NCBI GenBank assembly: GCA_044226015.1
Contig: JBGAHS010000005.1
Coordinates: forward strand, 671,116 to 735,115
Length of the DNA stretch: 64,000 nucleotides
Source: Candidatus Obscuribacteraceae bacterium
GTDB lineage: Bacteria > Cyanobacteriota > Vampirovibrionia > Obscuribacterales > Obscuribacteraceae
Reading direction: 5' to 3'
Shown piece after piece: positions 6,091 to 45,881 of the stretch. Below the pieces are notes generated by a model. That model did no database searches and was not told the DNA's origin. It saw only the letters and a list, made by a program, of their open reading frames with translations. Both the position numbers and the translations under genes were made by a program. The first letter of the stretch is position 1. Each line of letters begins with the position of its first letter.

Positions 6091-6132
6091 CCAGCCGATT
6101 TCCTACTACCAATATTAATAAGTACCGATTTG

Positions 6133-7657: not shown

Positions 7658-7819
7658 TTTCCATTCCTTAATCCTGAATCCTGAGTTTCCGGGAGCTATC
7701 TTTTAGATATACATCAACCTTGAAAAGATCGCAAAATGACATCGCTTTTGCGATCGCTGGACTTTGTTGCTCGCTAATCGGCTTACCGGGAAACCGTGTA
7801 TTTCGTTGAGAGAAGCAAA

Positions 7820-8224
7820 TTAACGTAGCAAAAATTCAAATGTTGGATCAGGACCACCGGACAGGAAGAAACTAGTAAAAACATAGATCGCCATTGCTAT
7901 TGCTGCGAGCAGTTTTAGAAATCCGAAGATCACTCCATGCGGCGAACGCCAATTCGCAGTTTTGATGACTACTTCGAACTCACCTACCAAATAAATAATT
8001 GAGATGGGCAGCGCCATTGCTATGACTTCGACTAGAAGCAAGTCGTAACCTTTCAGCCCGAAAAACATGGGTTGGTTCGGCTTAAGCATTGCTAGGACTA
8101 ATAAAGGCAAGCCGATTATGGTACCGATAGCGAAAAAAGGCAGCCAACGAATCGATAGCTTTTCAGCCGTTGTAATATGAGTATCGGTTTCTCTTGCGGC
8201 TAAAACTTCTGCCAGCTTGTCCAT
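7820..8224 (-). CDS. Hypothetical membrane protein (about 3 TM)
   Basis: Three hydrophobic segments, GAGGG upstream. Confidence 0.65.
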   Translation of the reverse strand: MDKLAEVLAARETDTHITTAEKLSIRWLPFFAIGTIIGLPLLVLAMLKPNQPMFFGLKGYDLLLVEVIAMALPISIIYLVGEFEVVIKTANWRSPHGVIFGFLKLLAAIAMAIYVFTSFFLSGGPDPTFEFLLR

Positions 8225-8330
8225 TTAAGTGCCCTCTTAAAGCTTGGGTGATCTTATCGTTGCGACGTTGTAGCATCATTAGCAGCTGCTTACTTGAAAC
8301 CCGGCTTTGTTGCTTTCGCTAGAAAGTATT

Positions 8331-8597
8331 TTAGTCGCAGAACTCAGGCGAAGCCCATGATGGTGCTGCTCCTGTTATTTCGACCTCGTTAAGCTTGCCG
8401 TATTCTTCCATCAAGGATTGAATCTCTGAAGCTTTCAAGCCAAATTGTTTTTCCAAGCGCTGCCAGGATTTTCGAACCCAGTAACGTGAGTTACCGTGGC
8501 AATCGTCAGCATAGTCAGCGATAGCGTCAGTTAGATGCAGCGAGCGCTGCAATCGTTCTTCTTTCTGCCATCTTTCTAGTTTGCGTTTTGCAGTCAT
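8331..8597 (-). CDS. Small hypothetical protein translationally coupled to the upstream integrase
   Basis: ATGA overlap at 8594-8597. Confidence 0.55.
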   Translation of the reverse strand: MTAKRKLERWQKEERLQRSLHLTDAIADYADDCHGNSRYWVRKSWQRLEKQFGLKASEIQSLMEEYGKLNEVEITGAAPSWASPEFCD

Positions 8598-10177: not shown

Positions 10178-10570
10178 GGAGGGCTCCTTTTAAGTCATAA
10201 AAATTGAATTGAATTCAGACTACAACAACTTTGTCCAAAATGCTCGAAAGGTAAGCTAATAGCTTGTTTTGCTGCTTTCAAAAACTAGATTGGGAAAGCG
10301 AAATCAACTTTATAAAAATTCTGCAAATTAGCTTAAGTCATCAAGCCGTTTGTGTCCTAAATATGGCTAGGTAAAGGTCAAATTCTCGTTTGTAGCCTTT
10401 ATAGCGTTTGCAGTTAGCTTTGAAGCCTCGAAGCCATAGATTTCAAAAAGTCGGTGAGTTTCATATTTTCAATCCTCGTTTCTGGTTGATAAAATTACTT
10501 ATCAAGAGGCTAAGCTATTAGCTTAAGTTGTCTGTTTGCTTTGGTTGCAAGTTTACGGGAGCCTTTACTT

Positions 10571-11635
10571 ATGGCGGAAAAGCGCTATCAAGTCTTTATT
10601 AGCAGTACTTATGTAGATCTTGTGGAGGAGCGCAAAGAAGTAATACAAGCGTTGCTTGAGCTCGACTGTATGCCTTCTGGGATGGAATTGTTTCCTGCAG
10701 CAAATGAAAGCCAATGGAACTTGATAAAGCAAGTCATTGATGAGTGCGATTATTACGTGCTGATTATCGGCGGGCGATACGGCAGCATCTCTGAGCCTGA
10801 CGGAATTAGCTACACTGAAAAGGAATATGACTATGCAGTAACCATAGGCAAACCAACAATTGCATTCTTGCACAAGTCTCCCGGAAAAATTGCTTCAGAG
10901 AAAACTGAATCAAAAGACAAAGGGAAAGAACTTCTTGCGGCGTTTAGAAAAAAGGTCGAGCAAAAACTATGTAAGCACTGGGATTCCGCTGCAGAACTAG
11001 GATCTGTTGTTAGTAGAAGTTTAGTTCAACTAATGAGATCTACACCAGCTGTGGGCTGGGTACGCGCCAATGAGCTTGCTAATGAAGAAGCAACAAAAGA
11101 AATCTTGGAGCTAAGGAAACAAGTAGACTCACTTACGAAACAACTGGAAACTTCAAAGACAACAGCTCCAAAAGGGGTTGAAGACCTAGCGCAAGGAGAT
11201 GACGAACACACGTTTGAAGTCGCTTTTCTTAGCAAAAAGAAAGTAGGCGGCTCAATTAGCGAATGGTTTTGGATTGACGTCAAAGCGACATGGAACGAAT
11301 TATTTGCTTATGTAGCCCCGACAATGATCCATGAGACTACAGAAGAGGCTTTTGAAATTGCCGTGAATAATTTCTTTTATAATTTCGCAAGTGATCAAGC
11401 CGCGAAGCAAGCAGAGGAGCTTCTGCTGTCGGGGCCAGAGAAGATTGAATTAGATGATGGCGAGATTCAAACAGTAAAGGTGCAATTGCTTGCGCTTGGG
11501 CTAATTAAAAAGAGCGAGAAGCAACGCAGTGTGAAGGACAAAGACGGCTATTTGGAATTAACTCCGTTTGGATATCAAACTATGACTCGGTTACGTGCGG
11601 TCAAGAAGAAAACCCCTCGCGTACATGGACTCTAG
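10571..11635 (+). CDS. DUF4062 domain protein, copy A
   Basis: [51 protein letters not shown]; then coiled coil and C-terminal domain. Confidence 0.9.
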   Translation: MAEKRYQVFISSTYVDLVEERKEVIQALLELDCMPSGMELFPAANESQWNLIKQVIDECDYYVLIIGGRYGSISEPDGISYTEKEYDYAVTIGKPTIAFLHKSPGKIASEKTESKDKGKELLAAFRKKVEQKLCKHWDSAAELGSVVSRSLVQLMRSTPAVGWVRANELANEEATKEILELRKQVDSLTKQLETSKTTAPKGVEDLAQGDDEHTFEVAFLSKKKVGGSISEWFWIDVKATWNELFAYVAPTMIHETTEEAFEIAVNNFFYNFASDQAAKQAEELLLSGPEKIELDDGEIQTVKVQLLALGLIKKSEKQRSVKDKDGYLELTPFGYQTMTRLRAVKKKTPRVHGL

Positions 11636-11893
11636 TGGTTACATGTAATCGGACATCATCAAGACATGTTGTGGCTGATTCTCTGCCTGTTCGTTGTTTA
11701 CGCCTAAAAAGGGATATCTTCGAATCAATGGCAAACTCGGGTATCTCTTAGCTTTGAAGAAACTTATGTGTCGATTATCACAAGCTGTGACACGTTTTTA
11801 GTAAATACGCTCAAACCGCATATACCATGGATCTCTGGATCTGAGCCAATAGATCAATTACTCTATTCTCAAGAGTTCTAGGAGGTTAAATAA

Positions 11894-12550
11894 ATGCATG
11901 ATCCAGTTTTTGCAGCCATGATTGCGGCTTTTGCCACATTAATGACTCTTGCTTGCAACAGCTGGCTAACAATGCATAAGGAAAAAGAGAATCGCAAATA
12001 TCAGTTGCTGCAAAGACGCTTAGATGAGTTCTACGGTCCGATGCTTAACCTGGTTGTGGAATTGCGATTGAGAGAACAGCATTATGTAGAACTTCTAGGC
12101 AAGATAACTGGAAAACAAATTTCTCTGCAAACCACTAGAGATTCGGATTCAAAAGACAAAGCTATGGAAGCTTGGAAGAATACCCATGAGCAAAGGAAAA
12201 GCAGATGGCGCGATATAGATATGTCTCTCTACGGAGAAATTCATGCACTGTTCAAAGCGAAGCAATACCTTGCAGAGCCTTCCACACAAGCATTTTATAA
12301 ACGGCTAATCAACTTACTAGAGTTGATGGAAATGATCAAGAATGATTACGTGCAGTCAATGCCTTTCGAAATAATGATGCAGTACAACGACAGTCAGTTT
12401 CTTCGAGAATTTCAAAATGACCTCGAATCGCATCGAGAAGCTTTACTCTTGAACATAACCGGATCTAAAACGAGCGAACAAGGGGTTCTCGATGGTGTCA
12501 AAAGTTTTTCACAGTGGAGCTTCGTTCAAAAAAGTTTGATGTCACATTAG
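11894..12550 (+). CDS. Hypothetical protein with N-terminal TM helix and helical body
   Basis: GGAGG RBS; hydrophobic residues ~5-25; RLDEFYGPM motif. Confidence 0.75.
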   Translation: MHDPVFAAMIAAFATLMTLACNSWLTMHKEKENRKYQLLQRRLDEFYGPMLNLVVELRLREQHYVELLGKITGKQISLQTTRDSDSKDKAMEAWKNTHEQRKSRWRDIDMSLYGEIHALFKAKQYLAEPSTQAFYKRLINLLELMEMIKNDYVQSMPFEIMMQYNDSQFLREFQNDLESHREALLLNITGSKTSEQGVLDGVKSFSQWSFVQKSLMSH

Positions 12551-12595
12551 TGGGCGCTGTTAAAGAACTGTCAAATGAGGTCATAAGCCACAAAA

Positions 12596-13690
12596 ATGCC
12601 TGAGAAACGCTATCAAGTATTCATAAGTAGTACCTACATCGATCTCGTAGAAGAACGCAGCCAAGTAATGCAAGCATTGCTAGAACTAGACTGCATGCCA
12701 GCAGGGATGGAGTTATTTCCCGCTTCCGATGAATCACAATGGGAGCTCATTACAAGAGTTATTGATGAATGCGATTATTACATCCTTATTCTCGCTGGTC
12801 GCTATGGCAGCCTTTCAAAGGCAGATGGCATTAGTTACACGGAAAAGGAGTATAAATATGCGTTATCGATCGGTAAGCCAACAATTGCATTCTTGCATAG
12901 CGACCCTGGAAAAATCATCGCCGCTAATACAGAGCGCGACGATGAGGGGAAAAGACTTCTATCGAAATTTAGGGAAAGCGTTCAGGAGCAATTAATTCGG
13001 AAATGGGATAATCCAGGTGATTTACGTGCCAAAGTAACCACTAGCTTAGTTTCCTTGATGCGGAGAAAACCTGGAATAGGCTGGGTTCGCGCTAATGAAA
13101 TAGCGAGCGTCGACGCAACAAGGGAAATTCTGCTACTCAGAAAAGAAAACGAATCTCTTCGTCAGCAAATTCAAAAAACGGCAATCGATGGACCGGTTGG
13201 TGTAGAGGAACTTTCACAGGGCGATGATGAAATCCAGTTAACGCTCACATTCGAAACCGTAAAAACTGAACACTATTCTGAAACGCCAGAGAATCACGCA
13301 CTTTCGGTACTCACAACTTGGAACAAACTCTTTGCTTCAATAGCTCCGACTATGATCCATGAAGCGACAGACGCTCAAATAAGAACCGCCGTAGCTGAAT
13401 ACTGTACGCAGGAAAGTCAGGTTGCTATACAAGAACTACTAAAGAAAGGAAAGCGAAAAAAAGCCCAGTATTTTGTAGTGTCGAATAGAAATTTTCAAAC
13501 TGTAAAAGTTCAATTGAAAGCCCTGGGCTTGATACAGAAAAGTGAAAAGAATAGAAGCGTAAGAGATACTGAAACCTATTGGTCGTTGACAGCTCATGGT
13601 GAATCCGTTATGACTCGTCTTCGAGCGGTCAAACGAAATCAATCTGGAAGCTCGCAGCAAAACTCTGACAATATTGACGAGCGAGATTAA
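12596..13690 (+). CDS. DUF4062 domain protein, copy B
   Basis: Same motifs as 10571-11635; clear paralog. Confidence 0.9.
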
Positions 13691-15013
13691 ATGGAAACCA
13701 AAAGCTTATCTACAGCATCTTGCATGTGATCTGGCGCCAAATGAGCGCATTTCAGCGTCATTTTGCAATCGCTGTGACCTAACAAAGCTCTTACTTTGTT
13801 CAAATCAACGCCAGCTATAACGAGCTTGCTTGCGAATGTATGGCGTAAATCGTGCCATCTAAATTCTTTATGTCAGCCAGCTTCAAAACGCCTTCCCATG
13901 ATGTGCGCATATCCGAGAATGGCTGACCCTTCTCATCACAGAAAACGTATAAAGATTTGACCGGCAAGTATTTGCTCTGACCTTTAATACATCGAGAGCT
14001 TCATTGTTCAATCTTATATGGCGTGTCTTTCCAGCTTTCGCAGTGCTGGCTTCGACCGTCAAATCTTTCTTTCGAAGTCGACGCTGCTCCATTTTAGTTT
14101 CAGCAATTCGCCACGGCGCATGCCAGTGTTCAGCGAAGCAATTACAGCTGGACTGAGATGATCAGCGAATTCATTGGCAGTCAGAATTGACTGAAGATCG
14201 CAGCCGCGCTCTGCTCGCCAAGCGTTTCCACTGGCTCTGCTTTCTCGCAATCTTAACTCTCTTTTTTCGAGCGCCCAGCGCAATCGTGCTTCCTCTTAGG
14301 AGTGAGATAACGAACAATGGAATTGCTGTCGCCATCGCATGAATCAACTTTGTCGCATGGATTGTTCAATTAAGCCCAAGTCTTTTGCCTTGTTCAAACA
14401 AGCTCGACGGTCATTCAATTGACGATTGATAGTAGCTGGTGACACTCCCTAAATTTCTAAGCGGCGTTGCTTCCTTTGCTCAATCATCAAGCTCGTGATG
14501 TCACAGAGCTTGATGATTGAAGTTCAGCGAATCTATTCTTGAGATTGTTGTATGTCTCTCTCTCCGAGGCGGAGTTATTCACTCCGCCTCGGAGATGGCT
14601 TACCAGGTATGGCTTATAAGTTGAGTCAAGAAAGTTGCGATAGTTCTCTTTAACTTCTTTCTCTGCTTGCAGCAATTCTGCTGTTTCAAGTTTGCTTCTC
14701 TCGATTGCTGCATTCTCAGCAGCCCGCTTTTCCGCTGCCTCTGCTTGCTTGTGAGCTGTTATTGGATCGATGCCGGTAAGTTCCAACTCGGCAAGAAATT
14801 TGCGCGCTCTCTTGCGAGCCTGGTCTAAGTCGAGCACATCTGAGCTTATGGTATAGCGCTTGCCTCTGCCATAGACAAGGCAGAATGACATGACGCCAGT
14901 TTTCCTTACTCGCAGAACCAAGCCGCGAACCTACTCCTGCTCGCCGTCCGGCAACTTTGTTTCAATTCACGCTTGAGAGTCTTAATGAGCGATGCTGAAA
15001 GTTCGACTGTCAT
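13687..15013 (-). pseudogene. Heavily decayed tyrosine integrase (several frameshifts/stops)
   Basis: Fragments [64 protein letters not shown]. Confidence 0.85.
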
Positions 15014-19276: not shown

Positions 19277-19714
19277 ATGTCATGGCTCTTCGTAGTGAAT
19301 CTAGCATCCACCTGGTTTATGACCGGTTTAATCTGGTTTGTGCAAATCGTTCACTATCCCCTATTCACTTATGCGGCTGGTGAAAAATTCCAGGAGTTTG
19401 AACAAACACACTGCGACCTCACTGGTGCCATAGTGGTACCGGCCATGGTGACAGAGTTATTGTCTTCATTTGCTTTAGCGATTCTATGGACAGGACAACA
19501 GCGATGGTTACTCTGGCTTAATTTCGCTCTGGTGTGCGCGATCTGGATTTGCACTGCGGCTCTCTCGGTTCCTTGCCATAGCCGCTTTTGCAGTGCGGGA
19601 TATTCTGCTGCAGTCCTCAGCTTTCTTGTTGGGAGCAACTGGATCCGAACACTTCTCTGGACGGTCAGAGGTCTAATACTGGGATTCCTGATGCTCAGGC
19701 GAACTGTTATCTGA
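19277..19714 (+). CDS. Conserved-type 4-TM membrane protein
   Basis: MTGLIWFVQIVHYPLF..VPCH..NWIRTLLW; AGGAG RBS. Confidence 0.8.
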   Translation: MSWLFVVNLASTWFMTGLIWFVQIVHYPLFTYAAGEKFQEFEQTHCDLTGAIVVPAMVTELLSSFALAILWTGQQRWLLWLNFALVCAIWICTAALSVPCHSRFCSAGYSAAVLSFLVGSNWIRTLLWTVRGLILGFLMLRRTVI

Positions 19715-25222: not shown

Positions 25223-25370
25223 GCTAGTACTTAATCCATGGAAGTGCGAAAGCTCTAAGTCTATCAGCTTGTAATCTGCAAATATCCTGATGGACGGCAC
25301 AAAGCCATCCAATATTAATTTCCATACGATGTTCATTGGGTATAATCGTGAAGCAAGCCACAGAACAAAC

Positions 25371-27317
25371 ATGATCAAAATTGGTAGCGTCTTCGACAAT
25401 AGGTATCTCATCGAGAAAGAACTCGGTGAGGGCGGTATGGGTAAGGTTTATAAAGCCCGCCAGATAGATGCAGATCGTGAGGTTGCTCTTAAGCTGTTGA
25501 AAGAGATTCACGATGTGGAGAATAAAGAACGCTTCTTCCGTGAGTTCAAGATTCTTTCTGAGCTTCAGCATCAGCACATTATGACTGTCTATGGGCTTGC
25601 CCTGTATGCAGACTCGGTTCCTTATGCTGTATGTGAGCTTTTGGATGGGAAGAGTTTGAGGCAGCTCTTATTAGAACGTGGGCATTTGTCCTGGCAGGAA
25701 GTTGTTGAAATCGCTCTGCAAGTCGCAAGTGCTTTGAGCTTTGCTCACAAGAGTAGCGTGATACATAGAGATTTGAAGCCGGAGAATATCATTCTTGTTA
25801 ATAAGCCACGAGAAAACTATGTAAAAATTATCGATTTTGGATTGTCCAAAGTGCTGGATACTTCCGATGAAAAGCTTACCTCTACTGGGCAATTGCTTGG
25901 AAGTCCTATGTACATGAGCCCAGAACAACTAACGCAGGTTGCCGACTCGCGAAGCGATATTTATTCTCTAGGTTGCATCATATTCGAAATGCTTGCCGGT
26001 GAGAATCTGTTCCCTTCTGATGTTCCTGTTGCTGCGCTGTACAGGCACACGACCGATCGTGCCACCGAGCGTGTTAGTGCCATCAAGGACGAAGTTCCTG
26101 AAGACCTGATCAGACTTGTGCTCGGTATGCTTGCGAAGGACCCTGCTCAGCGCATTCAAACTGCAGATGATGTCTTTCTGCGCTTGGACCAAATATTGCA
26201 GAAGCCTGGAAAGTTTATGCGCTCGCGGTCAATTCTTTCAAGTGACAAGGGTAAGTCATGGAGGCTTCGGCTTGTTGCAGGGCTGGCGCTAATAGTAATA
26301 ATAGGGTTTGCAGTGGATTCAGCTCGAAAACGCGAGCTTCTCAAAGAAACTGCTCCAATACTCAAACAGGCCGTTGCTAAACAACTCGGGGAAATCGTCA
26401 GGATCCGCAGCAAGTTCCATACTGCACTCGTTCTTTCTTCGTCTCGAAGCGGTCAAAAACCACTTAGTGAAACTGAAGGTAGCGAAGGTCGTAAATGTAT
26501 TAGCTGGTTGAAAAAATTGGAAAATGAGGCAAAAACAAGATCTGACAAATTCAATGTTTATTGGTTGGAAGCGCAGTTTTACGGTGATCTTCAAGAACAT
26601 GGCGCGAAATTGTTAGCCCTGCAGAAATGCTTAAGCCTTCTCACTAGTGATAACAGAAAAAGGTATGAAGAGACGCCGTCAATTTTTGCTTTAATTGCAT
26701 CTACTTGTCGTTATGGTTTTGATAAAGAGCATGAAAAGGCATTGCAGTACTGCAAGATGGCAATTGAGGCAGGCAGCGAGAATTCCAGATGGGTAGCCGC
26801 TGGTCATCAACTTGACAGGCTTTGTACCTTGAGAGATGGTCCACCGGTGGGAGACGATAATCACGTTCACGCTCTGTTGGCGGAAGAGTACATGCGCCTC
26901 GGAGATTACCGAGATGCTGCGAGGGAAGCGAAATTCGTTAGTGATTTAGAAGAAGCCGCTTTTCCTCAAACCTATCCAGGTAATGCCACCATCACCAACG
27001 TCGTGATGTACGCTGAAGCATTACGAATGTTGGGACGAAAAGATGAGGGTGCAAGGCACATCGATAGAGTATTGGCCAGAGTTAACAAAAGAGATGAATT
27101 GCCTCCAAGAGATCGTGTTCAGCAAAGAGCGCTTGCTTGCGATCTGCTTCGGATTTATAGTTCGGCGATATACTGGTTCAATGCACATGGATTTCAGCAT
27201 CTCACCAAGAAGTATGCAGATATATCGATGGATTTTGCGAAGTATTATGGTCTGAAGTATGATCCTTATTCGAAATTGCCACCATCCGATCCCGAATATG
27301 ACAACTCTTCACATTGA
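25371..27317 (+). CDS. Ser/Thr protein kinase with TM helix and TPR-like C-terminus
   Basis: LGEGGMGKVY, VALK, HRDLKPEN, DFG, YMSPE; TATAAT at 25341. Confidence 0.93.
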   Translation: MIKIGSVFDNRYLIEKELGEGGMGKVYKARQIDADREVALKLLKEIHDVENKERFFREFKILSELQHQHIMTVYGLALYADSVPYAVCELLDGKSLRQLLLERGHLSWQEVVEIALQVASALSFAHKSSVIHRDLKPENIILVNKPRENYVKIIDFGLSKVLDTSDEKLTSTGQLLGSPMYMSPEQLTQVADSRSDIYSLGCIIFEMLAGENLFPSDVPVAALYRHTTDRATERVSAIKDEVPEDLIRLVLGMLAKDPAQRIQTADDVFLRLDQILQKPGKFMRSRSILSSDKGKSWRLRLVAGLALIVIIGFAVDSARKRELLKETAPILKQAVAKQLGEIVRIRSKFHTALVLSSSRSGQKPLSETEGSEGRKCISWLKKLENEAKTRSDKFNVYWLEAQFYGDLQEHGAKLLALQKCLSLLTSDNRKRYEETPSIFALIASTCRYGFDKEHEKALQYCKMAIEAGSENSRWVAAGHQLDRLCTLRDGPPVGDDNHVHALLAEEYMRLGDYRDAAREAKFVSDLEEAAFPQTYPGNATITNVVMYAEALRMLGRKDEGARHIDRVLARVNKRDELPPRDRVQQRALACDLLRIYSSAIYWFNAHGFQHLTKKYADISMDFAKYYGLKYDPYSKLPPSDPEYDNSSH

Positions 27318-28129: not shown

Positions 28130-28687
28130 CTAGTGTCGATGCATGATTGTAATCAGTACTACTGCAGCGATTCCGCAAGCAATGTATATGCCCTGGAAAG
28201 TGCAAGCGACGTGCCTCTCTAATTCGGCTAATGAATTCAGGTCTGATCTGTGCGTATGAGCCTGAGCTGTTATCGGCGCTGCCAACAAGTACTTTTCCAT
28301 TCCTTGAAGTACGTGTGTTTGCCTTCGGTGAAGTTTGCCATAGGCCTGCAAGAGTCCAGCCCAATTTCGATCGAGCAAATATCCGACCAGCGAAAGTGCC
28401 ACAGTCATTATCATCAAGTTCGTTACTCGATGCTCGTGCAAGAATACTTCGAATGATTCTTTGAAAATAAATCCGATACCTGCTAGAAGAAATGTATTCA
28501 GGGAAAGGAAGAATCCGTTGATAGCCTGTCGGCGTGCTGCAAAAGAGTCACTAGATTGAACGATGGATTTGTACTGGTCGTAAAGCAGCTTTAGCTGATC
28601 GGAATCGTAGTTAGTTCCTGACGGGAAAAGGACTTTTTCGAGTTCCTCATTTTCTTGCTGAATGTCTGATTTGTCTTGATTTGACAT
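28130..28687 (-). CDS. Small 3-TM protein resembling RipA/octameric membrane protein family
   Basis: YDQYK..S....RRQAINGFFLSLNT..W......Y..L......L..ME pattern. Confidence 0.6.
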   Translation of the reverse strand: MSNQDKSDIQQENEELEKVLFPSGTNYDSDQLKLLYDQYKSIVQSSDSFAARRQAINGFFLSLNTFLLAGIGFIFKESFEVFLHEHRVTNLMIMTVALSLVGYLLDRNWAGLLQAYGKLHRRQTHVLQGMEKYLLAAPITAQAHTHRSDLNSLAELERHVACTFQGIYIACGIAAVVLITIMHRH

Positions 28688-31719: not shown

Positions 31720-31951
31720 TTTTTTTGCCTCTAAGAGATTAAGCTCATAGTGCTAAGGTAAATTCCACAACGTGAAATGGATGTGTGTCTGAGGCTGTCT
31801 ATTTGTACAGTCTTTGCTCGAATATTCAGTACGCTTATGCAGGCTAGCGTTTTAATTGTCATACTTGCGTATTCTCTTATCACGAAGCACATTGAAGATA
31901 TTCTTTCGCGGTGACCCTTCAAGGGTATAATGTGCAAAAGAGGATGCGAAT

Positions 31952-32740
31952 ATGGACAAAAAGCTTGGCTTGATTTTATTTGCGCTAACACTTAGTTGTG
32001 AGGCTCATGCTGGATCGAATGAGGACTTTCAGCAGTATTTGGCTAACAGGAAATACAGAGTCAATCTTCTAAACCAGGCACAACGCTTAAAGGAAACCAA
32101 TTATCCTGAAGCGGAAAAGACTCTACTCCAATTTTTTACCATTTCACAGAAATCACCTGCAGGCTCGGATGAAAGAGTTTCGGCGTACGAAACGATGTTT
32201 TCTTGGTACAGTCATTTGGAACTATACAAGGCAAAAGAGCATCCAGAGGCTAAAGCTAAGTGTGAGTATTACCTTGGTTTGCTAGAGCCTCTTTTGGTAA
32301 ATCGGTCAAAAGAAACCAACAACCAATCGATTTTGCGTTACATGCAGTCTGTTTCTAGTTATTACGAACAAAAGCGACGCTCGGACAAAGTCGATTTCTA
32401 CTACAAACAAATGGTCGACTTGAGTAAACTCAACCCGATGGGTTCAGTGCAAACTGCGACTTTGCTAGACGAGTGGTCGGACAAAAAGAATAGAGCTGGA
32501 GATTACAAGCAAGCTGAGCAACATATGGTGGAAGCTCTCTACTACTGGGACATGTTGCCTCCAACCGATCAGCATCGAGCCAATGCTCACCTGCGAGCCT
32601 ATAACTGGTATTTCAGATTTGGTGAAACTCAGAAAGCAGACCGGCAAAAAACCTTGCTTACAGAGATTCTTGGTGCCAGGGCGAGCGAAGAGCTTCTAAA
32701 ACCGAAAAAACACATTTGCTACGGTTGCGGGCGAGGATGA
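31952..32740 (+). CDS. Secreted TPR-like protein with C-terminal CxxCGxG motif (candidate MNIO substrate)
   Basis: Signal peptide (AHA), helical repeats, ends HICYGCGRG; TATAAT at 31926, GAGG RBS. Confidence 0.75.
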   Translation: MDKKLGLILFALTLSCEAHAGSNEDFQQYLANRKYRVNLLNQAQRLKETNYPEAEKTLLQFFTISQKSPAGSDERVSAYETMFSWYSHLELYKAKEHPEAKAKCEYYLGLLEPLLVNRSKETNNQSILRYMQSVSSYYEQKRRSDKVDFYYKQMVDLSKLNPMGSVQTATLLDEWSDKKNRAGDYKQAEQHMVEALYYWDMLPPTDQHRANAHLRAYNWYFRFGETQKADRQKTLLTEILGARASEELLKPKKHICYGCGRG

Positions 32741-32742
32741 TA

Positions 32743-33960
32743 TTAGCTGCCCGATTTTACAGCCCACTTTTTTGTCAAAGTCTTCGCCAGGTGAATCATT
32801 CTCGGTTCAAAAGTCTCTATCAATGTTCGAAAAGAAATCAATTTCGGGTCTTCGATAAGTGTGTTTTTGATTTCTTTTTCTTCGAGATTCCCAAACAATA
32901 GGTCGAGTAATTTCTCCTCGTAATAATCCAGTATTTCGAGTTCGTCAATATATTCAAGTTTGGCATCAATCAGCTCGGAGTTTGCCAGGGTGGATTCGCT
33001 GTAATCTCTTGAGCTCGTGCAATTCTTGGGAGTGTTTTTCGTTTGAACGCTACTAACATATTGAGGTGATGCTGATTTTACGAGCGAAGTGCCGCTACAA
33101 AATGACTCAACCATATTTTTTGTCTCGCGATAATCGTTGCGGAGTTGTTGTGCGTCTGACTCCGATTGTATCGTATTTGCGAGGCGCTCAAAAATTACAA
33201 ATTCCAATGCCGGGCAGAACTTGAGTGCTAGAGGCAAAAGCTCGAATAAGGATTGCGGTATTTCATTGTCGTGAGTATCTCTTCTTATCAATTTAGAATT
33301 GTCGTATGACGACCAGGAGCCGCCTGAGATGTGAATCTCTTTCACGCGAGAAAGTGGGTACCATGACAATATTTCTATAGCGTCTAAATCAAAGTTCTCC
33401 ATCTGACAATAGAGATTGTGCAGGTCGAGTAGCAAGAAACCGTTGGTTAACTCTAGCAACTCTCTAATGAAGCCCGCTTGATCCTTAGCTTCTTCAGCAC
33501 TAAATGCGAAGGCAAGATTCTCCAATCCAATCGGACAAGAAGAGAGCTTTGCTAATACTCTCAGTTTGTCGCTTGCTAGAGCTTTTGCGGTTTTGCACCG
33601 CGGTACGGGCAGTGGACTTGTGTCATCAAATCCGGTGGCGCGGCTGAATCCATAATGTTCGGAAATGTGAAGGTAATTTCGGACTTCACACTCATGTCTA
33701 AACTGTCTTAACCAATCATCTTGAATGTCCGAATCTTTTGCTGTTAGCGCTGAAAATCCAACTCCATGACCAAGCAGTCTGTTACTGCTGCTAAACTCCA
33801 TCAATCGAGCTTGCACCCAGTCAGGAAGAGGTTCTGGTCCCCATCCCATGTCGAAGCTCCACTCAAGTACCTCTATGATTTCTTGCTCAAATAGTTCTTT
33901 TGTAGCTGTGTAAAAATCGGAACTCGGCATCAACGAAATTCCGCAGCGAATTGATGACAT
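32743..33960 (-). CDS. DUF692 / multinuclear non-heme iron oxidase (MNIO), ChrH-like
   Basis: LEWSFD, HGVGFS, ISEHYGF, GLENLAFAF, LLLDLHNLYCQ, EIHISGG, RRDTHD, IFER. Confidence 0.9.
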   Translation of the reverse strand: MSSIRCGISLMPSSDFYTATKELFEQEIIEVLEWSFDMGWGPEPLPDWVQARLMEFSSSNRLLGHGVGFSALTAKDSDIQDDWLRQFRHECEVRNYLHISEHYGFSRATGFDDTSPLPVPRCKTAKALASDKLRVLAKLSSCPIGLENLAFAFSAEEAKDQAGFIRELLELTNGFLLLDLHNLYCQMENFDLDAIEILSWYPLSRVKEIHISGGSWSSYDNSKLIRRDTHDNEIPQSLFELLPLALKFCPALEFVIFERLANTIQSESDAQQLRNDYRETKNMVESFCSGTSLVKSASPQYVSSVQTKNTPKNCTSSRDYSESTLANSELIDAKLEYIDELEILDYYEEKLLDLLFGNLEEKEIKNTLIEDPKLISFRTLIETFEPRMIHLAKTLTKKWAVKSGS

Positions 33961-34027
33961 ATTCGTGTTTCCTTCCATTGTGCTGTTGGTTGATATGCGT
34001 GCGCAGTGCATCGCAGAGTTTCCGCAC

Positions 34028-35299
34028 TTACTCTAGCTGTATTTTTGAATCTTTAGAAATACTCTCGCTATTGGTGTTTAGAACACCTGCTGCAGCCTTA
34101 TTTTCCCAATCTCTTACAGCAAAATACATAAACGACATGCTCCAAAGTTGACCCAAGGCTACTGCAGTTCCAAAATGTTGGAACCAATTATCAGCACCAG
34201 AATTGAGAGCAATCCACAATACGCTAAGTGCAGGTCCTAAACCTGTAAGCAAACACCTGTATGGAATTCCGGTTTCTCGCTTTGTGGTGGCATCTTCGAG
34301 ATCTTTAGAGAGTCTGTAATAATATAACCCGATGCCAAAGGTTTGAATCAATAGGGTCGCAACAACTAGCCATGTGGAAAATGCAAGAGCTAAAATTACG
34401 CTCGTTTTATCAAGGCTTTGGGTCCGAAGAAACAATGTGTTGATGACTTGCGCTATCACGGCAACCATAATGCCTGTTGTTGTTAAAGTACCAATGTTGG
34501 CTCCTACCCATGCCTGAATCGGACCCAGGTAGGCAAGCGCCGGGTTCTTTTCTTTCAAGCGTTGTTGAGTTATGACTGCGAGCCAAGACTGTATTGGATC
34601 AAAAATCGCAGCAAAAATTCCTACACTTGTAATTGCTCCCCATCCAGGAATGTATCCCAAGCATGTTAGTGCGCAAATTCCAATTAGAGCTATGACTGCA
34701 TTGCGGTATGCAGAAGAAATTCGATGGTCCTCTTTTGTTTGCGATTTTAGTGCAGTCCACAGGGCTGCTGCCCACCCGACACCACTCCATCCCAGCAAGG
34801 TATTGAGTAAGACCACTAAATTACTTTTAGAGCTTTTTCGAAATCCAGCCAAGATCATGGGCAGGAAAATGAGCACGGGGATGATTAGATAACCAGCGAA
34901 AACTCCTGCTGCCGTGGGCATCAAGTATGGCATGGGACCTGGAGTGAAAAATGACTGAACTGTAGCAATGCTTATAGATGAAATGACAACTACAATCCAT
35001 GCAAGAACACAATGGTGCGCGAGGCTCTTCTTAGCATGGATCTTGGGCAGATCAATTTGCCTTTCCTTGATCTGCGGATATTCTTCTTGTTTGATAACTG
35101 ATTGGTTGGCTTGCCCTTCTGAATCATGCAGTTCGCGCGAAGAATTCTGTATTTGTGAGTCGAGCTTTGGAACGGCTGCTGGAGCTGCTTTAGCCGCAGC
35201 TTGAGTTGCAGTGTTTTCTTCTGCGTCAGCTTTAGCCGTGACAATCGTTATGTCATCCGGACGCTGTTCTAGCTTTTGCTCGTTTGTTTCTGAATTCAT
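34028..35299 (-). CDS. Multi-TM protein with embedded superinfection-immunity (T4 Imm-like) domain
   Basis: IFLPMILA..RK....V.LLNTLLGWSGVGWAAALWTAL plus several further TM helices. Confidence 0.75.
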   Translation of the reverse strand: MNSETNEQKLEQRPDDITIVTAKADAEENTATQAAAKAAPAAVPKLDSQIQNSSRELHDSEGQANQSVIKQEEYPQIKERQIDLPKIHAKKSLAHHCVLAWIVVVISSISIATVQSFFTPGPMPYLMPTAAGVFAGYLIIPVLIFLPMILAGFRKSSKSNLVVLLNTLLGWSGVGWAAALWTALKSQTKEDHRISSAYRNAVIALIGICALTCLGYIPGWGAITSVGIFAAIFDPIQSWLAVITQQRLKEKNPALAYLGPIQAWVGANIGTLTTTGIMVAVIAQVINTLFLRTQSLDKTSVILALAFSTWLVVATLLIQTFGIGLYYYRLSKDLEDATTKRETGIPYRCLLTGLGPALSVLWIALNSGADNWFQHFGTAVALGQLWSMSFMYFAVRDWENKAAAGVLNTNSESISKDSKIQLE

Positions 35300-37512: not shown

Positions 37513-39831
37513 TTAGAGTGCTTTTGTTTCATTCTTGCCATACTTTGTGCGTTCCCGCTGATATTCTTCGCTCACTTGCTTTGCTAATGATTGATCTACC
37601 TTTGATGAAAGCTGGTAAAGTTGGTTAGCTTTGCACAAGGGAATAAGATGTTCTGGTTGCCAGCCAAAGCAGTCCCATCGCTTGTAGATGCTCCATAATT
37701 GAGCGGCTAAAGTTGCTTTTGACTCCTCTAACGGTCCATCAGACATCGTTTTCGAGAGTTCTGTTTCTGCTTTGATTTTCTTGCCGAGCAAGGAGAGGCA
37801 ACAATATTCTTCTGCCGAGCACCTTCGGAAACCTGCTATATCCCCACGGTTTTTGCAAATTTGTTTTGCTTCTGCAAAGAGCTTTCTAGAGTTCTCTACC
37901 TCATCAAGCCACTCTTTCGGGTGTAAGTTTCGATAGCGAATCTCACCAGAATTTTGCTTTTCTGCCCAGGTGTTCATTGACCACTCGGCAGAATAAGAGA
38001 GGAAATTGGCTTTGTCTCTTTCTGCAATCGAAGATATTTGTAGATACCCTATTTCGTCGGTTGGGCTGAGTCCAGCGATCGATTTCTTTTTCGATTTTTC
38101 AGCAAGACTGGCTCGTTTTGTAGTAAATGATTGTAATAGCTGTCTCGCAGATTCCCAGCGTTTTGCGATCGACATTTCTATTGCTGCTTCCAGGGCTCTT
38201 TGCCCCTGTTGTTCTTCTGACGCTTCGCTATATATCAGCTTATCTGCTCGACGTTTGGCCTCATCAACTCGATTGAGGTTTGACAATACTCTGATTCTGT
38301 ATAACTCTAATTTAGGAGATGCATGGAGCTTCTTTGCTTTTTCGATTGTCGCCAGTGCGCTGTCATATTCTCCAGTTCCGTTTCTTCCTTCGATTAGACC
38401 TTGATATGCGATCCACCTTTGGTCGTTGGTTAAAGTCTTGCTCTTCTCTACAAAGTCATTGAGGCGATTAACGTCGTCTCGATATGCTTCTGTGTCGGAG
38501 TTTGATCCACTAGCGGTCAGTCTCATACTGATGATTTTACAGAGAAGTCCATCGTCTGCTTTGCTCTTTACCGAGTCATAGATTGAGTCCATGAGTTTTT
38601 GCGCGGAAGAGGCTTCCCCATCCGCCAGCATCAGGTGCGCTAACAAAATGTTTGCGTCCACCAAAGATTCACTGGACATTGTTGCTCGATTGCTTGCTTG
38701 TTGCAGCCATAATTCCAAAAACCTTCGGGCTTCCAAGAATTTTCCTCGCCCTTGCAACGAGTTGACTATGGATTGAATTTCTTCCCAGTCACAGTGCCAT
38801 AAATTTCGTGGTTCTTTTGGTGCTGAGACCTTGCTTTTGCTTTTCTTGGTAAATCCCATCTGGACGCTTCTTTTCTGCAAATAGAGTCCGCTCAGAAGGA
38901 TGCTTACTACAATTGCTGCAACTGCTAGTAGTGGCATCATTGAGCGGGCTGTCTTCCTGCTCGTGGGTCCACCTGTGACCTTATCATCATGTCCATTTAA
39001 AATAGCTGTGATGTCGTTAGCCATTTCTTCTAAATTGCCATATCGATGCTGCGGTTCTTTTGCAAGTGATTTGTACAAAACCCGATCGATTGCGCGGGGG
39101 ATCGACTCTTTCGGTAGGAGTTCTTCCAATGTGACCCATTGCTCATTTATGTGTTTGTGGAACACACCAAATGCGTTGTCGGCCTCGTATGGAACGTGTC
39201 CCGAAATTAATTCGTAGAGGATCACCCCGATTGCATAGGTGTCTGATGCAGCTGTTGATTTCTGTCCCTGGCATTGCTCTGGGCTCATGTATTTTGGCGA
39301 GCCCAGTAACATTCCTGTAGCAGTGAGTGTATTGCCTTTTTGAGAAAATCTGCCCAACCCGAAATCAATTATCTTTATCTCGTCGCTATCATCAATCTTC
39401 AATATGTTTTCTGGCTTGAGATCTCGATGGACAATGCCAGCTTGATGGGCGGACTGCATTGAAAGACATACTTTTCTTATCAGGTTCAGAGACTCTCGCC
39501 AGTGTAGCTTCTCATTCGCATTCAAAAGTCCGCGCAATGATACACCCTTCACATATTCCATTGCGAAGTAGACCAGGTTGTCGTAAGTACCGAAATGGTA
39601 AAAGCTTACAATTCCTGGACTATTGAGATCGGCTAGTAGTCTTCCTTCGCGAATGAATCTTTCTCTATCTTCTTCATCAAATTGTTCTGCAGACATGATC
39701 TTCAGTGCAACCTGACGCCCAAGATCTTCCTGTTCGGCAAGGTAGACTGTTCCCATTCCGCCTACGCCTAATAGCTTGATTATCTTGAAGCGCTGGTCAA
39801 TTATGCTTCCTTCTTTCAGTTTTATCGCCAT
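37513..39831 (-). CDS. Ser/Thr protein kinase, TM + TPR-like
   Basis: LGVGGMGTVY, HRDLKPEN, DFG, YMSPE. Confidence 0.93.
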   Translation of the reverse strand: MAIKLKEGSIIDQRFKIIKLLGVGGMGTVYLAEQEDLGRQVALKIMSAEQFDEEDRERFIREGRLLADLNSPGIVSFYHFGTYDNLVYFAMEYVKGVSLRGLLNANEKLHWRESLNLIRKVCLSMQSAHQAGIVHRDLKPENILKIDDSDEIKIIDFGLGRFSQKGNTLTATGMLLGSPKYMSPEQCQGQKSTAASDTYAIGVILYELISGHVPYEADNAFGVFHKHINEQWVTLEELLPKESIPRAIDRVLYKSLAKEPQHRYGNLEEMANDITAILNGHDDKVTGGPTSRKTARSMMPLLAVAAIVVSILLSGLYLQKRSVQMGFTKKSKSKVSAPKEPRNLWHCDWEEIQSIVNSLQGRGKFLEARRFLELWLQQASNRATMSSESLVDANILLAHLMLADGEASSAQKLMDSIYDSVKSKADDGLLCKIISMRLTASGSNSDTEAYRDDVNRLNDFVEKSKTLTNDQRWIAYQGLIEGRNGTGEYDSALATIEKAKKLHASPKLELYRIRVLSNLNRVDEAKRRADKLIYSEASEEQQGQRALEAAIEMSIAKRWESARQLLQSFTTKRASLAEKSKKKSIAGLSPTDEIGYLQISSIAERDKANFLSYSAEWSMNTWAEKQNSGEIRYRNLHPKEWLDEVENSRKLFAEAKQICKNRGDIAGFRRCSAEEYCCLSLLGKKIKAETELSKTMSDGPLEESKATLAAQLWSIYKRWDCFGWQPEHLIPLCKANQLYQLSSKVDQSLAKQVSEEYQRERTKYGKNETKAL

Positions 39832-42113
39832 ATTTTTCGCGCCTCGGCACCATATATGGAGAGTTCTTTAGCTAAAGACTCTTGAACTCGCCTTGCTGTA
39901 GCGCAATTTGGAATAGCTGATTTGCTATAGAGTTCAGCCGATTTTTCGAGGGGAATGATATGTTCAGGTGTCCATTCTAATGAGCACCAGTTTTGTCCGA
40001 TGTCCCAAAATCTAGCAGCCATTGAAGCTGCGGTTTCTTCTTCATTGGCAGCATTCAGCGCTTCTTGTAAGACACGCTCTGCATCATTTTTCTGCCCCAG
40101 AATTCTGAGGCAGCAGTATTCGTAAGCAGTATTCTTGTATAAACCGCGTAGGTCATTCTTGCGCTTCATTAAATACTTTGCTTTATTGAAATATCGGAGG
40201 CATTCTTTCACCGCTCTAAGCCAGGGCTCACGTTGTTTTGTGCGGTGGTAGGTGAACTCTGCTTCATCAAATGACCATTCAGCATATTCCGAAAGGACGC
40301 TATCAAGCTGTTTCGCTTTCATGATTGAATCTTGATAGGAGTCCAGTGCTGGCGAACTGTCCTGCTGATTTTCAGTAATTGATTCTTTTGTTTGGGTATC
40401 AAGTTTTCCGAGGTACCCGCGCAGAAGACTAGCTGCATAATCACAACGCGACGCATTTGCTGCGGCTCTTCCAACTACGACCGCTCGCAAAATTTCTGTC
40501 TCATTGCTTTCGTGGAGGATGAACTCCTGTGCTTGTTTTTTCGCTTCATCATCCCGCTTTAACGCGAACAGAATTTTGATTTTCAACAAAGTAAGATCAG
40601 GTGAATGGTCTAGTTGCGACGCTTGTGAAACTAGTCCGATTGCTTTTTCATGATTTCCTAAGCGCTCTGTCGCATTAATCAATGCCCGGTAGGCCATCCA
40701 TTTTTGTTCATTGGTCAGCTTCGTGCTTGTGCGAATAATTCGCTCTAGATTCTCTGTGTCAGACTTGAGCAGAGCCTCGTTCGTAGGGGAAAGGTTCACT
40801 GATATTCTTGCAGCTAAGAGCTTGCACTTGTCGGCATCATTTGCTTTTTGCGCGACAGTTTTGAAGAGTTTGTCGATTACTTCAAAGGTACCTGCTGGGT
40901 CATCGATCATCATGAGCTCAACATGAAACCAGTATTTTGTAATTTGCTCGCTGATGCTTGCATCTTGGTTGCTATTAGATGCGAGCCAACTCTTGGTTAT
41001 TTCCTGCGCTTCGTTGAAGTTTCCTTGATCTGTCTTAAGTCGTGCGACAGAAAGAATTTCGTCCCAACCGCAGTGGTCATATGAGTGTTTCGATTTCTGA
41101 ATAGCTCGTTTTGTTTTCTGCTTTTGAATTGGTTTTGATGAGTCTGAGTTGTTTTTGTTGAACAGTGGCTGAGCCAAAAATGGTATAGCGGCGAGTAATA
41201 CGATACCTACAATTAATATGGGCATCTTCTTTGATGCATTGTGCTTTGGCAAGGGGATCTCGGCAAAATCTTCTTCGTCTTGCAGTAGGGTCGTTATGTC
41301 ATCGGCCATTTCGGCCAGGCTGGCATACCTTTGCTCTGCTGATTTTGCAAGTGATTTTTCAAGAATGTGATTGAGTCCAAGTGGCAACTTCTCAGCAGGA
41401 AGGGACTGCTTCAGACTGTTCCATTTTTCTTTACTGTGCTTGTGCATGACACCGAATGCAGTATCAGCTTGAAATGGTGGCTGTCCTGTGATCAGTTCGT
41501 AGAGTATAATTCCAGTGGCATAAATGTCTGACGACATAGTAGCTTTTAGACCCTGGCATTGTTCGGGGCTCATATACTCTGGCGAACCAATTATTAACCC
41601 GGTTGCTGTTAAAGTTTTGCCTTGTTCGGAGAATCGCCCGAGACCGAAATCAATTATTTTGATTGAATCATCGTTGTCCTCGACGAGTAAAATATTTTCT
41701 GGTTTCAGGTCTCGATGCAATATCCCTGCGCTGTGAGCACTGTGCATTGCCAGGCACATATTTCGGACGATTCGCAGCGCCCTTCTCCAGGGAATTCTTG
41801 TTTGCTCTGTTATCAGTCGCCTGAGTGATTGACCTTTAACGTGCTCCATAGCGAAGTAGACAAGATTGTCGTCCGCGCCGAAGTGATAGAAGCGTACTAT
41901 CCCGGGGCAATTCAGTTCGGAAAGTATTTGACCTTCTCTTATGAAGCGATCCTTATCTTCAGAGGAGAATTGCTCTGCGGCCATAACTTTCAGAGCTACA
42001 GTCCTATTGAGGTCTGCTTGCTCTGCAAGATACACAGAGCCCATGCCGCCCGTTCCGAGCAGCCTTATAATTCGAAAACGTTCGTCGATGAGCACATTTT
42101 CTTGTAGTTTCAT
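39822..42113 (-). CDS. Ser/Thr protein kinase, tandem paralog of 37513-39831
   Basis: Same kinase motifs; shared HCxWxEI, AxEYCCL, WxPEHxIPL in the C-terminal part. Confidence 0.93.
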   Translation of the reverse strand: MKLQENVLIDERFRIIRLLGTGGMGSVYLAEQADLNRTVALKVMAAEQFSSEDKDRFIREGQILSELNCPGIVRFYHFGADDNLVYFAMEHVKGQSLRRLITEQTRIPWRRALRIVRNMCLAMHSAHSAGILHRDLKPENILLVEDNDDSIKIIDFGLGRFSEQGKTLTATGLIIGSPEYMSPEQCQGLKATMSSDIYATGIILYELITGQPPFQADTAFGVMHKHSKEKWNSLKQSLPAEKLPLGLNHILEKSLAKSAEQRYASLAEMADDITTLLQDEEDFAEIPLPKHNASKKMPILIVGIVLLAAIPFLAQPLFNKNNSDSSKPIQKQKTKRAIQKSKHSYDHCGWDEILSVARLKTDQGNFNEAQEITKSWLASNSNQDASISEQITKYWFHVELMMIDDPAGTFEVIDKLFKTVAQKANDADKCKLLAARISVNLSPTNEALLKSDTENLERIIRTSTKLTNEQKWMAYRALINATERLGNHEKAIGLVSQASQLDHSPDLTLLKIKILFALKRDDEAKKQAQEFILHESNETEILRAVVVGRAAANASRCDYAASLLRGYLGKLDTQTKESITENQQDSSPALDSYQDSIMKAKQLDSVLSEYAEWSFDEAEFTYHRTKQREPWLRAVKECLRYFNKAKYLMKRKNDLRGLYKNTAYEYCCLRILGQKNDAERVLQEALNAANEEETAASMAARFWDIGQNWCSLEWTPEHIIPLEKSAELYSKSAIPNCATARRVQESLAKELSIYGAEARKIWR

Positions 42114-42332
42114 GGGCTGAATATTTTGCACATCGCGGTAATCGAAACTTCGAAGACAAGGGCTAATCTTTCTTTCCCCGGCGCTTGGATTGTTTAACTG
42201 GCGGCTGAAAGCTCAGCAGGTCGGCTGTTCTCAGTTATGGTGCTCAGCCATGATTTGCTGAGAACAAGTTTACAGGCGCTTGTTTCCACGGCTTTGCTTT
42301 CAAACGTCTACATTGGCAGGTGCTAGCGAAAA

Positions 42333-44565: not shown

Positions 44566-45657
44566 TCACTCGCCGTCGCCGACGACCCAGCGCGACGGAG
44601 TCAACTCGTCCTTCGCGTTCTGGTTCGGTTCGACGCCGGCGCCACGCCAGGCTGCCAGCAGCTTGTCGACGTGCTGCGGAAAGCCCAGCTCGCGCGCGGC
44701 TTCGATCGTGTAGAACGCGAACGAGCCGAACGACGGGTTGCTGCCCGCCTTCTTCCGCGCCGCGAACCAGATCTGACCCGGCGCTTCCCAGGCCCAATCG
44801 CCGCTCTCCATGACGAAACGTGCGAACACACCGTTCGGAATACCCGAATTGGAGTGAACGCCTCCGTTGTCCGAACGCGTGACGATATAGTCCTTCATGT
44901 GAGCCGGCTGCCGGTCGCGACCCAGCTTGGGGTCGTTGTAGGCGGTGCCGGGCTTCAGCATGTTGCGGAGACCTTCGCCGTTGACCGAGCTGGTGAAGAT
45001 GCCGCGGCCGATGAGCCAGTCGATGAGATCCGAGCGCGACTTCTTCGACCAGATTTCGACGAGCTTGCCGAAGACATCGGAGAAGTGCTCGTTGAGCGAA
45101 CCGGACTGACCCCAGTAGATGGCGCCCGACTCGTATTCGGTCACGCCATGGGTCATTTCATGACCCGTGACATCGAGCAGAACGAAACGCGCGAAGATGA
45201 TCTGGTCGCCGCGGCCGTAGGTCATACGCCGGTTGCTCCAGAACGCGTTGTTGAACTTCTGGCCGAAATGAACGACGGAAACGAGGTTCATGCCGTTGGC
45301 GTCGATGGAATTGCGTCCGTGAACCGAACGATAGAACTCGCGCACAACGCCGGTGAAGGCGAAGGCGTCGTCCGCGTCACGGTCGCCGACGTCCGGGTCA
45401 TTTTCGCCGCGAATCTTCACGCCGACGCGGTCTTCCTGGTCCTTCGCATCCCAGATTTCGCGCAGCGCGAGCCCGGGAGTACGCGGGTCGATGGGGGAAT
45501 GTCCGGTTTCCGCGATGATGCGCTGAACGAGCTTGATCTGCTCGGCGATGATGCGCTCGCGTTCGGCGTTCTGCGAACGCTTCATGATTTCGTCCAGCAT
45601 GACGGGCGGAATGATGCCATTGCCACGGGCAGCCGACGGAAGAATGATGCTTGTCAT
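44566..45657 (-). CDS. M4 metallopeptidase, protealysin-like (copy 1)
   Basis: IIPP propeptide, NNAFW, HEMTH, GSLNEHFSD, DNGGVHSNSGIPN; no signal peptide. Confidence 0.92.
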   Translation of the reverse strand: MTSIILPSAARGNGIIPPVMLDEIMKRSQNAERERIIAEQIKLVQRIIAETGHSPIDPRTPGLALREIWDAKDQEDRVGVKIRGENDPDVGDRDADDAFAFTGVVREFYRSVHGRNSIDANGMNLVSVVHFGQKFNNAFWSNRRMTYGRGDQIIFARFVLLDVTGHEMTHGVTEYESGAIYWGQSGSLNEHFSDVFGKLVEIWSKKSRSDLIDWLIGRGIFTSSVNGEGLRNMLKPGTAYNDPKLGRDRQPAHMKDYIVTRSDNGGVHSNSGIPNGVFARFVMESGDWAWEAPGQIWFAARKKAGSNPSFGSFAFYTIEAARELGFPQHVDKLLAAWRGAGVEPNQNAKDELTPSRWVVGDGE

Positions 45658-45881
45658 TTTTGAGTTTCCTTTCTTCTCAGGTGAGGAGAGGTGAGTTTGA
45701 CGCTCACGCTCTCCGATGCTTTTGCTTTTGCGAAACTGCTTTAGCAGAACGCTAGTAGACTCAGACAGCATCAGTAGAAACTGATGTTGTCACTTCCAAA
45801 AGGCAATCACTAACGAAGAGCTCCTTTGCCGCCGTCAGTAGATTTCGGTGACGGTGCGGATTAAGAGCTCCCCAGCCGCCG

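Follow-up and report, generated by a model that had tools for sequence, protein, structure and literature searches.

The closest described system is the mel cluster from Candidatus Melainabacteria. According to the main text of Chen et al. (PNAS 2026; PMC13056109), TPR-containing precursors of more than 30 kDa end in CPACGMG, and MelA1 (34 kDa, a stable dimer with a secretion signal predicted to be of the SPase I type) was shown by mass spectrometry to be converted by MelH to a macrocycle-hydantoin product (-4 Da), with MelHc being required. The same text describes ChrI as dispensable, and lipidated products of the ChrH subfamily (DAG-RiPPs) as established for short peptides. For DybH, a tag of seven residues is reported in the main text of PMC12636315 to be enough on GFP, and the variants CPPCGMG and CPAACGMG to be accepted. 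The iron ligands of DybH are H65/H102, H210/D179 and D228/H230; a thioaldehyde is formed first and the ring is closed last, glutathione being captured when the first Cys is missing, and methylation of the product is non-enzymatic (bioRxiv 10.64898/2026.10.27.762324). For ChrH, the modified region includes the amides of Gly and Met, the two residues that follow the second Cys (Ayikpoe et al., 2023; main text of PMC10214503). Among openly readable papers, literature searches on ChrH-type MNIOs, their precursors and chryseobasin, and on MNIOs of Obscuribacter and Melainabacteria, listed nothing relevant beyond these.

We analyzed a window of 64,000 nucleotides (the whole stretch of DNA under study) from a Candidatus Obscuribacteraceae genome, the assembly of which comprises 8.19 Mb and is 92% complete. 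An earlier note on this DNA had singled out an intact DUF692 enzyme gene whose stop codon lies 2 nt from that of a 262-aa protein ending in HICYGCGRG. Both frames are indeed intact and have the claimed coordinates, the two genes are arranged tail-to-tail (convergently) with their stop codons 2 nt apart, and the C-terminal residues are confirmed in the translation of 31952-32740(+). The pair has the following features:

31952..32740, + strand: 262-aa MelA1-like precursor, all-helical and TPR-like, with predicted secretion; likely MNIO substrate (sequence, profile, model, fold search)
31952..32011, + strand: predicted signal peptide, aa 1-20 (sequence inspection, script)
32477..32716, + strand: conserved C-terminal helical module, aa 176-255, common to precursors beside ChrH-like enzymes in related genomes (alignment, profiles)
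32717..32737, + strand: CYGCGRG core motif with Cys256 and Cys259, where macrocycle and hydantoin are predicted to form (motif scan, family tails)
32752..32940, - strand: fused C-terminal helical domain of the enzyme, aa 341-403, homologous to the small separate MelHc-type proteins that come after split ChrH-like enzymes (alignment)
32941..33093, - strand: Ser/Thr-rich linker of the enzyme, aa 290-340, not conserved (alignment)
33094..33960, - strand: MNIO (DUF692) catalytic barrel, aa 1-289, ChrH/DybH subfamily (NCBIfam score, alignment, ligands)

The MNIO frame (32743-33960(-)) encodes 405 aa from the ATG at 33960; it is open from 34011, and a purine-rich stretch lies ahead of 33960. Since the two genes are convergent, they do not form a single transcript. 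The MNIO gene may share a transcript with the gene for a 423-aa membrane protein with a superinfection-immunity domain (34028-35299(-); PF14373, E 1.4e-10), located 67 nt upstream on the same strand. Promoter and terminator signals for the pair were at the level of shuffled sequence (10 versus 7.4 and 7 versus 5.0, respectively), and no repeats telling of an inversion were found there. The five bases CGAAT precede the ATG of both genes (31947-31954(+) and 33958-33965(-)), which may be chance.

Elsewhere in the window, 2235-14921 looks mobile on inspection, with a transposase-like frame and several partial integrase-like frames. Two 364-aa DUF4062 proteins are encoded at 10541-11635 and 12596-13690, and 3563-4202 holds what we take to be a toxin-antitoxin-like pair. 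The frames at 25290-27317, 37513-39831, 39822-42131, 44566-45771 and 28130-28687 encode three proteins that on inspection resemble Ser/Thr kinases with helical C-terminal parts, as well as an M4 peptidase of the thermolysin family and a membrane protein of the 8xMP type.

Judged by its sequence, the 405-aa enzyme is an MNIO of the ChrH/DybH subfamily, as had been claimed. Pfam PF05114 is matched with 96.8 bits (cut-off 25), and the best NCBIfam model is MNIO_ChrH (NF050165) with 308.6 bits, versus 85.4 bits for BufB. At 600 bits, the ChrH equivalog cut-off lies above this score; it is narrower than the subfamily, because six other members also score only 320-463 bits. In a quick tree, built without the ChrH, DybH and MelH sequences themselves, the enzyme falls within an 80-row clade of ChrH-like enzymes (SH-aLRT 100), on a long branch (0.82) and apart from the three remaining MNIOs of the genome, which reach 51-62 bits on the MNIO_ChrH model and have different neighbors. 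Its nearest relatives there are two enzymes from the same genus (loci L061 and L062), whose precursors are short, of low complexity, and end in CxxCGRG; the named close matches include Candidatus Obscuribacterales. As for the three other MNIOs (C10:12098-14261, C7:778519-780966 and C4:277738-279974; loci L001-L003), one is bufferin/oxazolin-like and beside a signal-peptide protein with KSCK repeats, another is fused into an 815-aa protein, and the remaining one is beside a membrane-like protein with a Gly/Cys-rich tail.

Residues H65, H102, D179, H210, D228 and H230 of the enzyme correspond to the six DybH iron ligands with identical numbering, a match based on residue numbers and motif conservation, as the DybH sequence itself was not in the alignment. 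Together with 33 homologues, the enzyme also conserves E147, N182 and E258, and it retains 58 of the 62 columns that are conserved in at least 90% of these homologues, the changes being G129A, G162A, V234I and G261A (the last beside Glu258). The C-terminal domain aligns with both fused and separate Hc domains, with 49% identity over 59 aa between aa 341-403 and a separate Hc protein. No signal peptide is evident in the enzyme, and a sequence search of solved structures returned no ChrH-subfamily member, only two distant DUF692 chains.

The 262-aa protein starts with a hydrophobic stretch (residues 5-13) and AHA at positions 18-20, found by inspection and script, and probably has a signal of the SPase I type, cleaved after AHA. 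Its predicted model is all-helical, with 12 helices and a mean pLDDT of 87.2; its tail is predicted to be flexible, with a pLDDT of 58. The top Foldseek matches are TPR proteins (best E 7e-4), and TPR clusters of the Atlas are matched at 0.93-0.94; Pfam TPR_12 taken alone stays below its cut-off (E 0.023). The model and the fold search thus support a body of TPR-like helical repeats, as the earlier note had suggested.

A single-sequence search with the 262-aa protein retrieved only the protein itself among 428 candidates, and relatives surfaced solely via gene neighborhood and profiles. Its last ~85 residues are common to the neighbors of ChrH-like enzymes in related genomes. When a profile was built from nine foreign precursors, with the Cys tails removed and the window protein left out, the 262-aa protein ranked first in its genome (domain E 1.4e-9, versus 0.009 for the next domain; the next best whole-protein E, 4.4e-8, came from generic repeats). 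No second module-bearing protein was found in this genome by the profile search. The 262-aa protein can be aligned to the precursor at locus L081 (22% identity over 212 aa, pairwise E 2e-11). For the precursors at L075 and L081, the calculated mass of the LysC tail fragment (1388.616) equals that given for MelA1 in the main text of PMC13056109 (1388.62). Indirectly, the fragment mass and the L081 alignment make it likely that MelA1 belongs to the family of the window protein.

A family search covered 1.84 billion representatives. Of its 70 best matches of up to 400 aa, 60 ended in a two-Cys CGxG tail and 10 did not, a count that is partly circular because the profile contained the tail and some matches were its own rows. 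Among the 60 tails, 44 were CxxCGxG (six of them CYGCGRG), 7 had 3-9 and 9 had at least 10 residues between the cysteines. None of the 79 matches longer than 400 aa had such a tail.

The tag is unique in the genome. Among 159,288 six-frame ORFs of at least 15 aa, one ended in CxxCGxG, and this was the 262-aa neighbor of the enzyme; CPxCGxG was seen in none of them, at any position. By chance, one would expect 0.44 such ends among all ORFs of at least 15 aa, and 0.005 among the 6,401 ORFs of at least 150 aa (~8e-7 per ORF). Eleven ORFs end in CGxG, and the other ten had no precursor features on inspection. A separate short precursor, which the earlier note had not found near the pair, is also lacking genome-wide among ORFs of at least 15 aa ending in CxxCGxG, and the idea of one was rejected. 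As the assembly is 92% complete, a further substrate could be missing from it.

The unique tail, the first rank with the tail-less profile, and the family link make the 262-aa protein very likely to be the substrate of the enzyme, in agreement with the earlier proposal that the MNIO tailors a large exported protein. We also predicted the complex of the enzyme with residues 170-262 of the protein and three irons. The score was 0.46, versus 0.16 for the best control, with at least 47% of contacts shared between runs and a partner pLDDT of at least 67. Of 157 solved complexes, 116 reach the mark used for such predictions, as do 2 of 215 mismatches; with scores of at most 0.60, only 18 of these complexes do so, along with both mismatches. 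Structure prediction of enzyme and tail, as suggested earlier, hence lends weak support to the pairing and changes its odds little.

Enzyme and substrate family are found together in the host order. A ChrH-like enzyme was found in 64 of 107 genomes and the C-terminal module in 42, and 40 of these 42 also had the enzyme (the genomes are kin and not independent). We inspected every one of the 68 enzyme loci found in other genomes, 13 of them with ~9 kb on either side and the other 55 with 6 kb of upstream and 3.5 kb of downstream sequence; contig ends cut several of them short. The helical Hc domain is fused in 24 of them and separate in 43, with one truncated case. A tagged or module-bearing ORF lies beside the enzyme at 56 of the 68 loci. 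All 108 precursor ORFs are on the enzyme strand (103 upstream, 5 downstream) and none on the opposite strand, which makes the convergent order of the window pair exceptional. In a wider genome collection, 24 of 26 loci had a CxxCGxG ORF, and all 29 such ORFs were on the enzyme strand.

The CxxCGxG tail recurs in relatives, with variation. Among the 47 short tails in the host order, 26 have Pro at position 2 and 21 have another residue (Tyr in 4); at position 6, Arg occurs 21 times and Met 19 times. The published consensus CPxCGxG is therefore too narrow for this group, in which the window protein is no outlier. CYGCGRG, the tag of the window protein, has Tyr rather than Pro at position 2 and accounts for 3 of the 47.

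Some precursors are encoded far from an enzyme gene (L129-L155, L159, L162, L165 and L168). Module matches away from any enzyme had an intact tail at 23 of 27 loci, a proportion biased by the tail in the search profile. Of five enzyme-positive genomes without an adjacent precursor, four carry the tag at the end of a frame of 92-197 aa at a different site, be it at a distance of 16-18 kb or 1 Mb or on a separate contig; in five enzyme-negative genomes, none of 14 raw pattern matches ended a frame longer than 25 aa. Some ChrH-like enzymes of relatives would thus act in trans. Large tagged proteins of other kinds were also seen beside ChrH-like enzymes: 267-275-aa Planctomycetota proteins without a clear Pfam family (L036:4196-4999 and L038:2664-3491), a 539-aa canonical TPR protein (L076:4233-5852), and a 349-aa frame of uncertain start in a Polyangiaceae record (L052:3917-4966).

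With these data, the pair can be compared to the described systems, as far as their main texts go. Like mel, it combines a ChrH-subfamily MNIO with a secreted (here predicted) TPR protein that carries a C-terminal two-Cys motif, the helical C-terminal domain of the enzyme is homologous, and ChrI is unmentioned for mel (PMC13056109). The tag differs (CPACGMG in mel, CYGCGRG here), as do the Hc domain (separate versus fused) and precursor size (34 kDa versus 262 aa); the window precursor, unlike those of mel, is single and convergent with its enzyme, and the enzyme is outside the clade of the L075 and L081 enzymes in the quick tree. With DybH/DybA from Dyadobacter, the pair shares a fused two-domain enzyme, identical ligand numbering and the lack of a partner protein, and by analogy the predicted product would be alike (-4 Da). 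DybA is a short lipopeptide, whereas the substrate proposed here is TPR-like and most likely carries a signal for SPase I. The chryseobasin system, ChrH/ChrA, is similar in subfamily and motif type, NF050165 being the best model, and differs by the ChrH equivalog cut-off, the presence of ChrI and a precursor that is not large; S-methylation is not expected here. No Anthrone_oxy/DUF1772 match was found in the genome, and a 145-aa membrane ORF considered as a ChrI candidate (19277-19714) has no Pfam match. The earlier note had taken the pair as a candidate for an undescribed system and had named the thiomethyl product of ChrH with ChrI as its precedent. Mel is already this kind of system, demonstrated by mass spectrometry, and the expected product is unmethylated (-4 Da) and made without need for ChrI (PMC13056109, main text). 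The window pair belongs to the already described mel-type system, with minor variations. The main text of PMC13056109 contains none of the terms 'CGRG', 'MelA2', 'paralog' and 'Obscuribacter', and the substrates tested in the main texts of PMC13056109 and PMC12636315 include none without Pro and none with Arg replacing Met or Leu.

By analogy with these systems, we consider it probable that the ChrH/DybH-subfamily enzyme would oxidize the CYGCGRG tail of the 262-aa protein to a thioether macrocycle plus hydantoin (-4 Da) before export. This reading builds on intact genes, the iron ligands, the C-terminal helical domain, a genome-unique tail and the family link. Following the steps shown in print for relatives, Cys259 would be oxidized to a thioaldehyde, the backbone would rearrange to a hydantoin using the amide nitrogens of Gly260 and Arg261, and Cys256 would close the ring last, leaving a free thiol, with neither enzymatic methylation nor ChrI involved. 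An enzyme without evident signal peptide and a tail predicted to be flexible suggest that the tail is modified in the cytoplasm before export, an order also proposed in the main text of PMC13056109, rather than on the folded protein, as the earlier note had it. Sec and SPase I would then free a protein of ~28.5 kDa, whose helical repeats would act as a scaffold for display of the ring. Modification of this tail is put at risk by its Tyr and Arg residues, by the fact that the two genes are transcribed separately, and by the divergence of the enzyme; the residue at the position of Arg, which is Met or Leu in tested substrates, gives its amide to the hydantoin.

What the modified tail would do is a matter of tentative argument. 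It may form a ligand-binding head in which free thiol and ring bind a metal or some component of the envelope; we prefer this, with reserve, to a peptide antibiotic that is set free. Alternatively, the TPR body could be a mere carrier, with the modified tail cut off after export (for example at the KPKK stretch) and acting as a small cyclic peptide. The tail does follow a basic stretch and is predicted to be flexible, conservation of the precursors is confined to their C-terminal part, and the closest, same-genus enzymes at L061 and L062 use short low-complexity precursors with like tails. However, no protease gene is evident adjoining the pair, the residues ahead of the tail are basic in the window protein but Pro-rich in most homologues, relatives retain folded bodies of ~330 aa in arrays, and MelA1 is a stable dimer (PMC13056109, main text), so that a carrier role appears unlikely. 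Nor do we expect the 262-aa protein to be a lipoprotein, lipidated at Cys16 and thus a membrane-anchored, protein-sized DAG-RiPP. Residues 6-16 fit what we take to be the PROSITE-type relaxed lipoprotein signal pattern, with Cys16 as the presumed candidate site. Just 2 of 106 homologues have this pattern. With the sequence T-L-S-C, the lipobox departs from the canonical form, and a good AHA site for SPase I lies downstream. Among described systems, lipidation in the ChrH subfamily is established for short peptides, and MelA1 is predicted to be an SPase I substrate (PMC13056109, main text). Taken together, lipidation is improbable.

Two further explanations were weighed. The convergent order, unparalleled among 108 precursors of relatives, the long branch of the enzyme and a Tyr/Arg tail unlike the assayed substrates could mean that the pair is a decaying remnant after rearrangement, in which the two cysteines of an unmodified tail serve only for a disulfide or for metal binding. 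Both frames are intact, though, all iron ligands and the Hc domain are retained, and CYGCGRG recurs beside related enzymes and in 6 of the 44 short-tail family matches; we rate decay as quite improbable. The earlier note had also imagined a general C-terminal tailoring enzyme for many tagged, unrelated proteins genome-wide. For this assembly, with its single CxxCGxG ORF, the idea was dropped and is largely refuted, given that the ten other CGxG ends lack precursor features and that no second module protein was found; we regard it as very improbable indeed. For relatives, with their arrays and distant copies, part of it stands, and weakly so, on the intact distant tails (23 of 27 loci, by a tail-containing profile) and the unlinked tags on frames of at least 92 aa (four of five enzyme-positive versus none of five enzyme-negative genomes), but the dispersed substrates mostly belong to one paralogous family. 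The preferred reading remains modification of the one tagged protein by its neighboring enzyme.

Outside the window, related genomes contain precursors with a much longer loop. At 24 of the 68 loci, we found 55 such precursors (53 distinct loops) with 15-19 residues between the two cysteines. The loops start with CG-x-x-x-WW (WW in 53 of 55), and their second half is variable (mean majority 0.21, versus 0.69 for the module). The precursor genes often form tandem arrays of 2-5, located upstream of split ChrH-like enzymes that belong to one clade; all 24 loci fall into a single 28-row enzyme clade of the quick tree (SH-aLRT 100), with the window enzyme outside. Examples are arrays of ~330-aa predicted secreted TPR-like proteins ending in C-G-x14-18-C-G-[M/L/R]-G (L063:2290-5294, L095:2932-6005, L096:4426-7585, L109:1734-6045 and L122:4466-9370). 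Long-loop precursors are candidate natural substrates for large rings, which would be chemically plausible, by analogy, since ring closure comes last and an outside thiol is accepted. At further loci (L079:4450-5463, L107:4429-6378, L140:2190-3137 and L147:654-2755), we observed spacings in between, of 3-6 residues, and another type of long loop that lacks WW, which suggests a continuum of ring sizes. The long loop had been considered as a beta-hairpin, and the predicted model shows no hairpin; a fold search with this model gave generic helical-repeat matches only (best Z 10.8, rmsd 4.5 over 174 residues). The main texts on ChrH, DybH and MelH make no mention of long-loop arrays; the supplements of PMC13056109 may show long loops or tails with Arg.

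Because MNIO tailoring of the C-terminus of a secreted TPR protein is already published, the window locus alone will not surprise the specialist. The pair is nonetheless a handy test case: the enzyme is fused, a single substrate is proposed for it, and the natural tail lacks both the 'conserved' Pro and the Met. Modification of this tail would widen the tag for site-specific macrocyclization of proteins and would bear on the likeness to the B ring of lantibiotics that has been suggested. The greater value lies in the family survey, with the enzyme in 64 of 107 genomes of the host order and the long-loop arrays, which make testable the maximal ring size that is closed and the role of the modified proteins. 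Tentatively, and with more doubt than confidence, one may imagine that the ChrH-type enzyme of the host order runs a protein-display system. A single enzyme would serve a family of secreted TPR scaffolds, whose genes lie partly in arrays and partly at distant loci, and their conserved last helical hairpin would help to present the tail. In one enzyme clade, the ring would have grown from 2 to 15-19 intervening residues, one half of which is hypervariable, and the window pair would be the minimal short-ring member with Arg. If true, these genomes would encode libraries of large macrocycles displayed on proteins.
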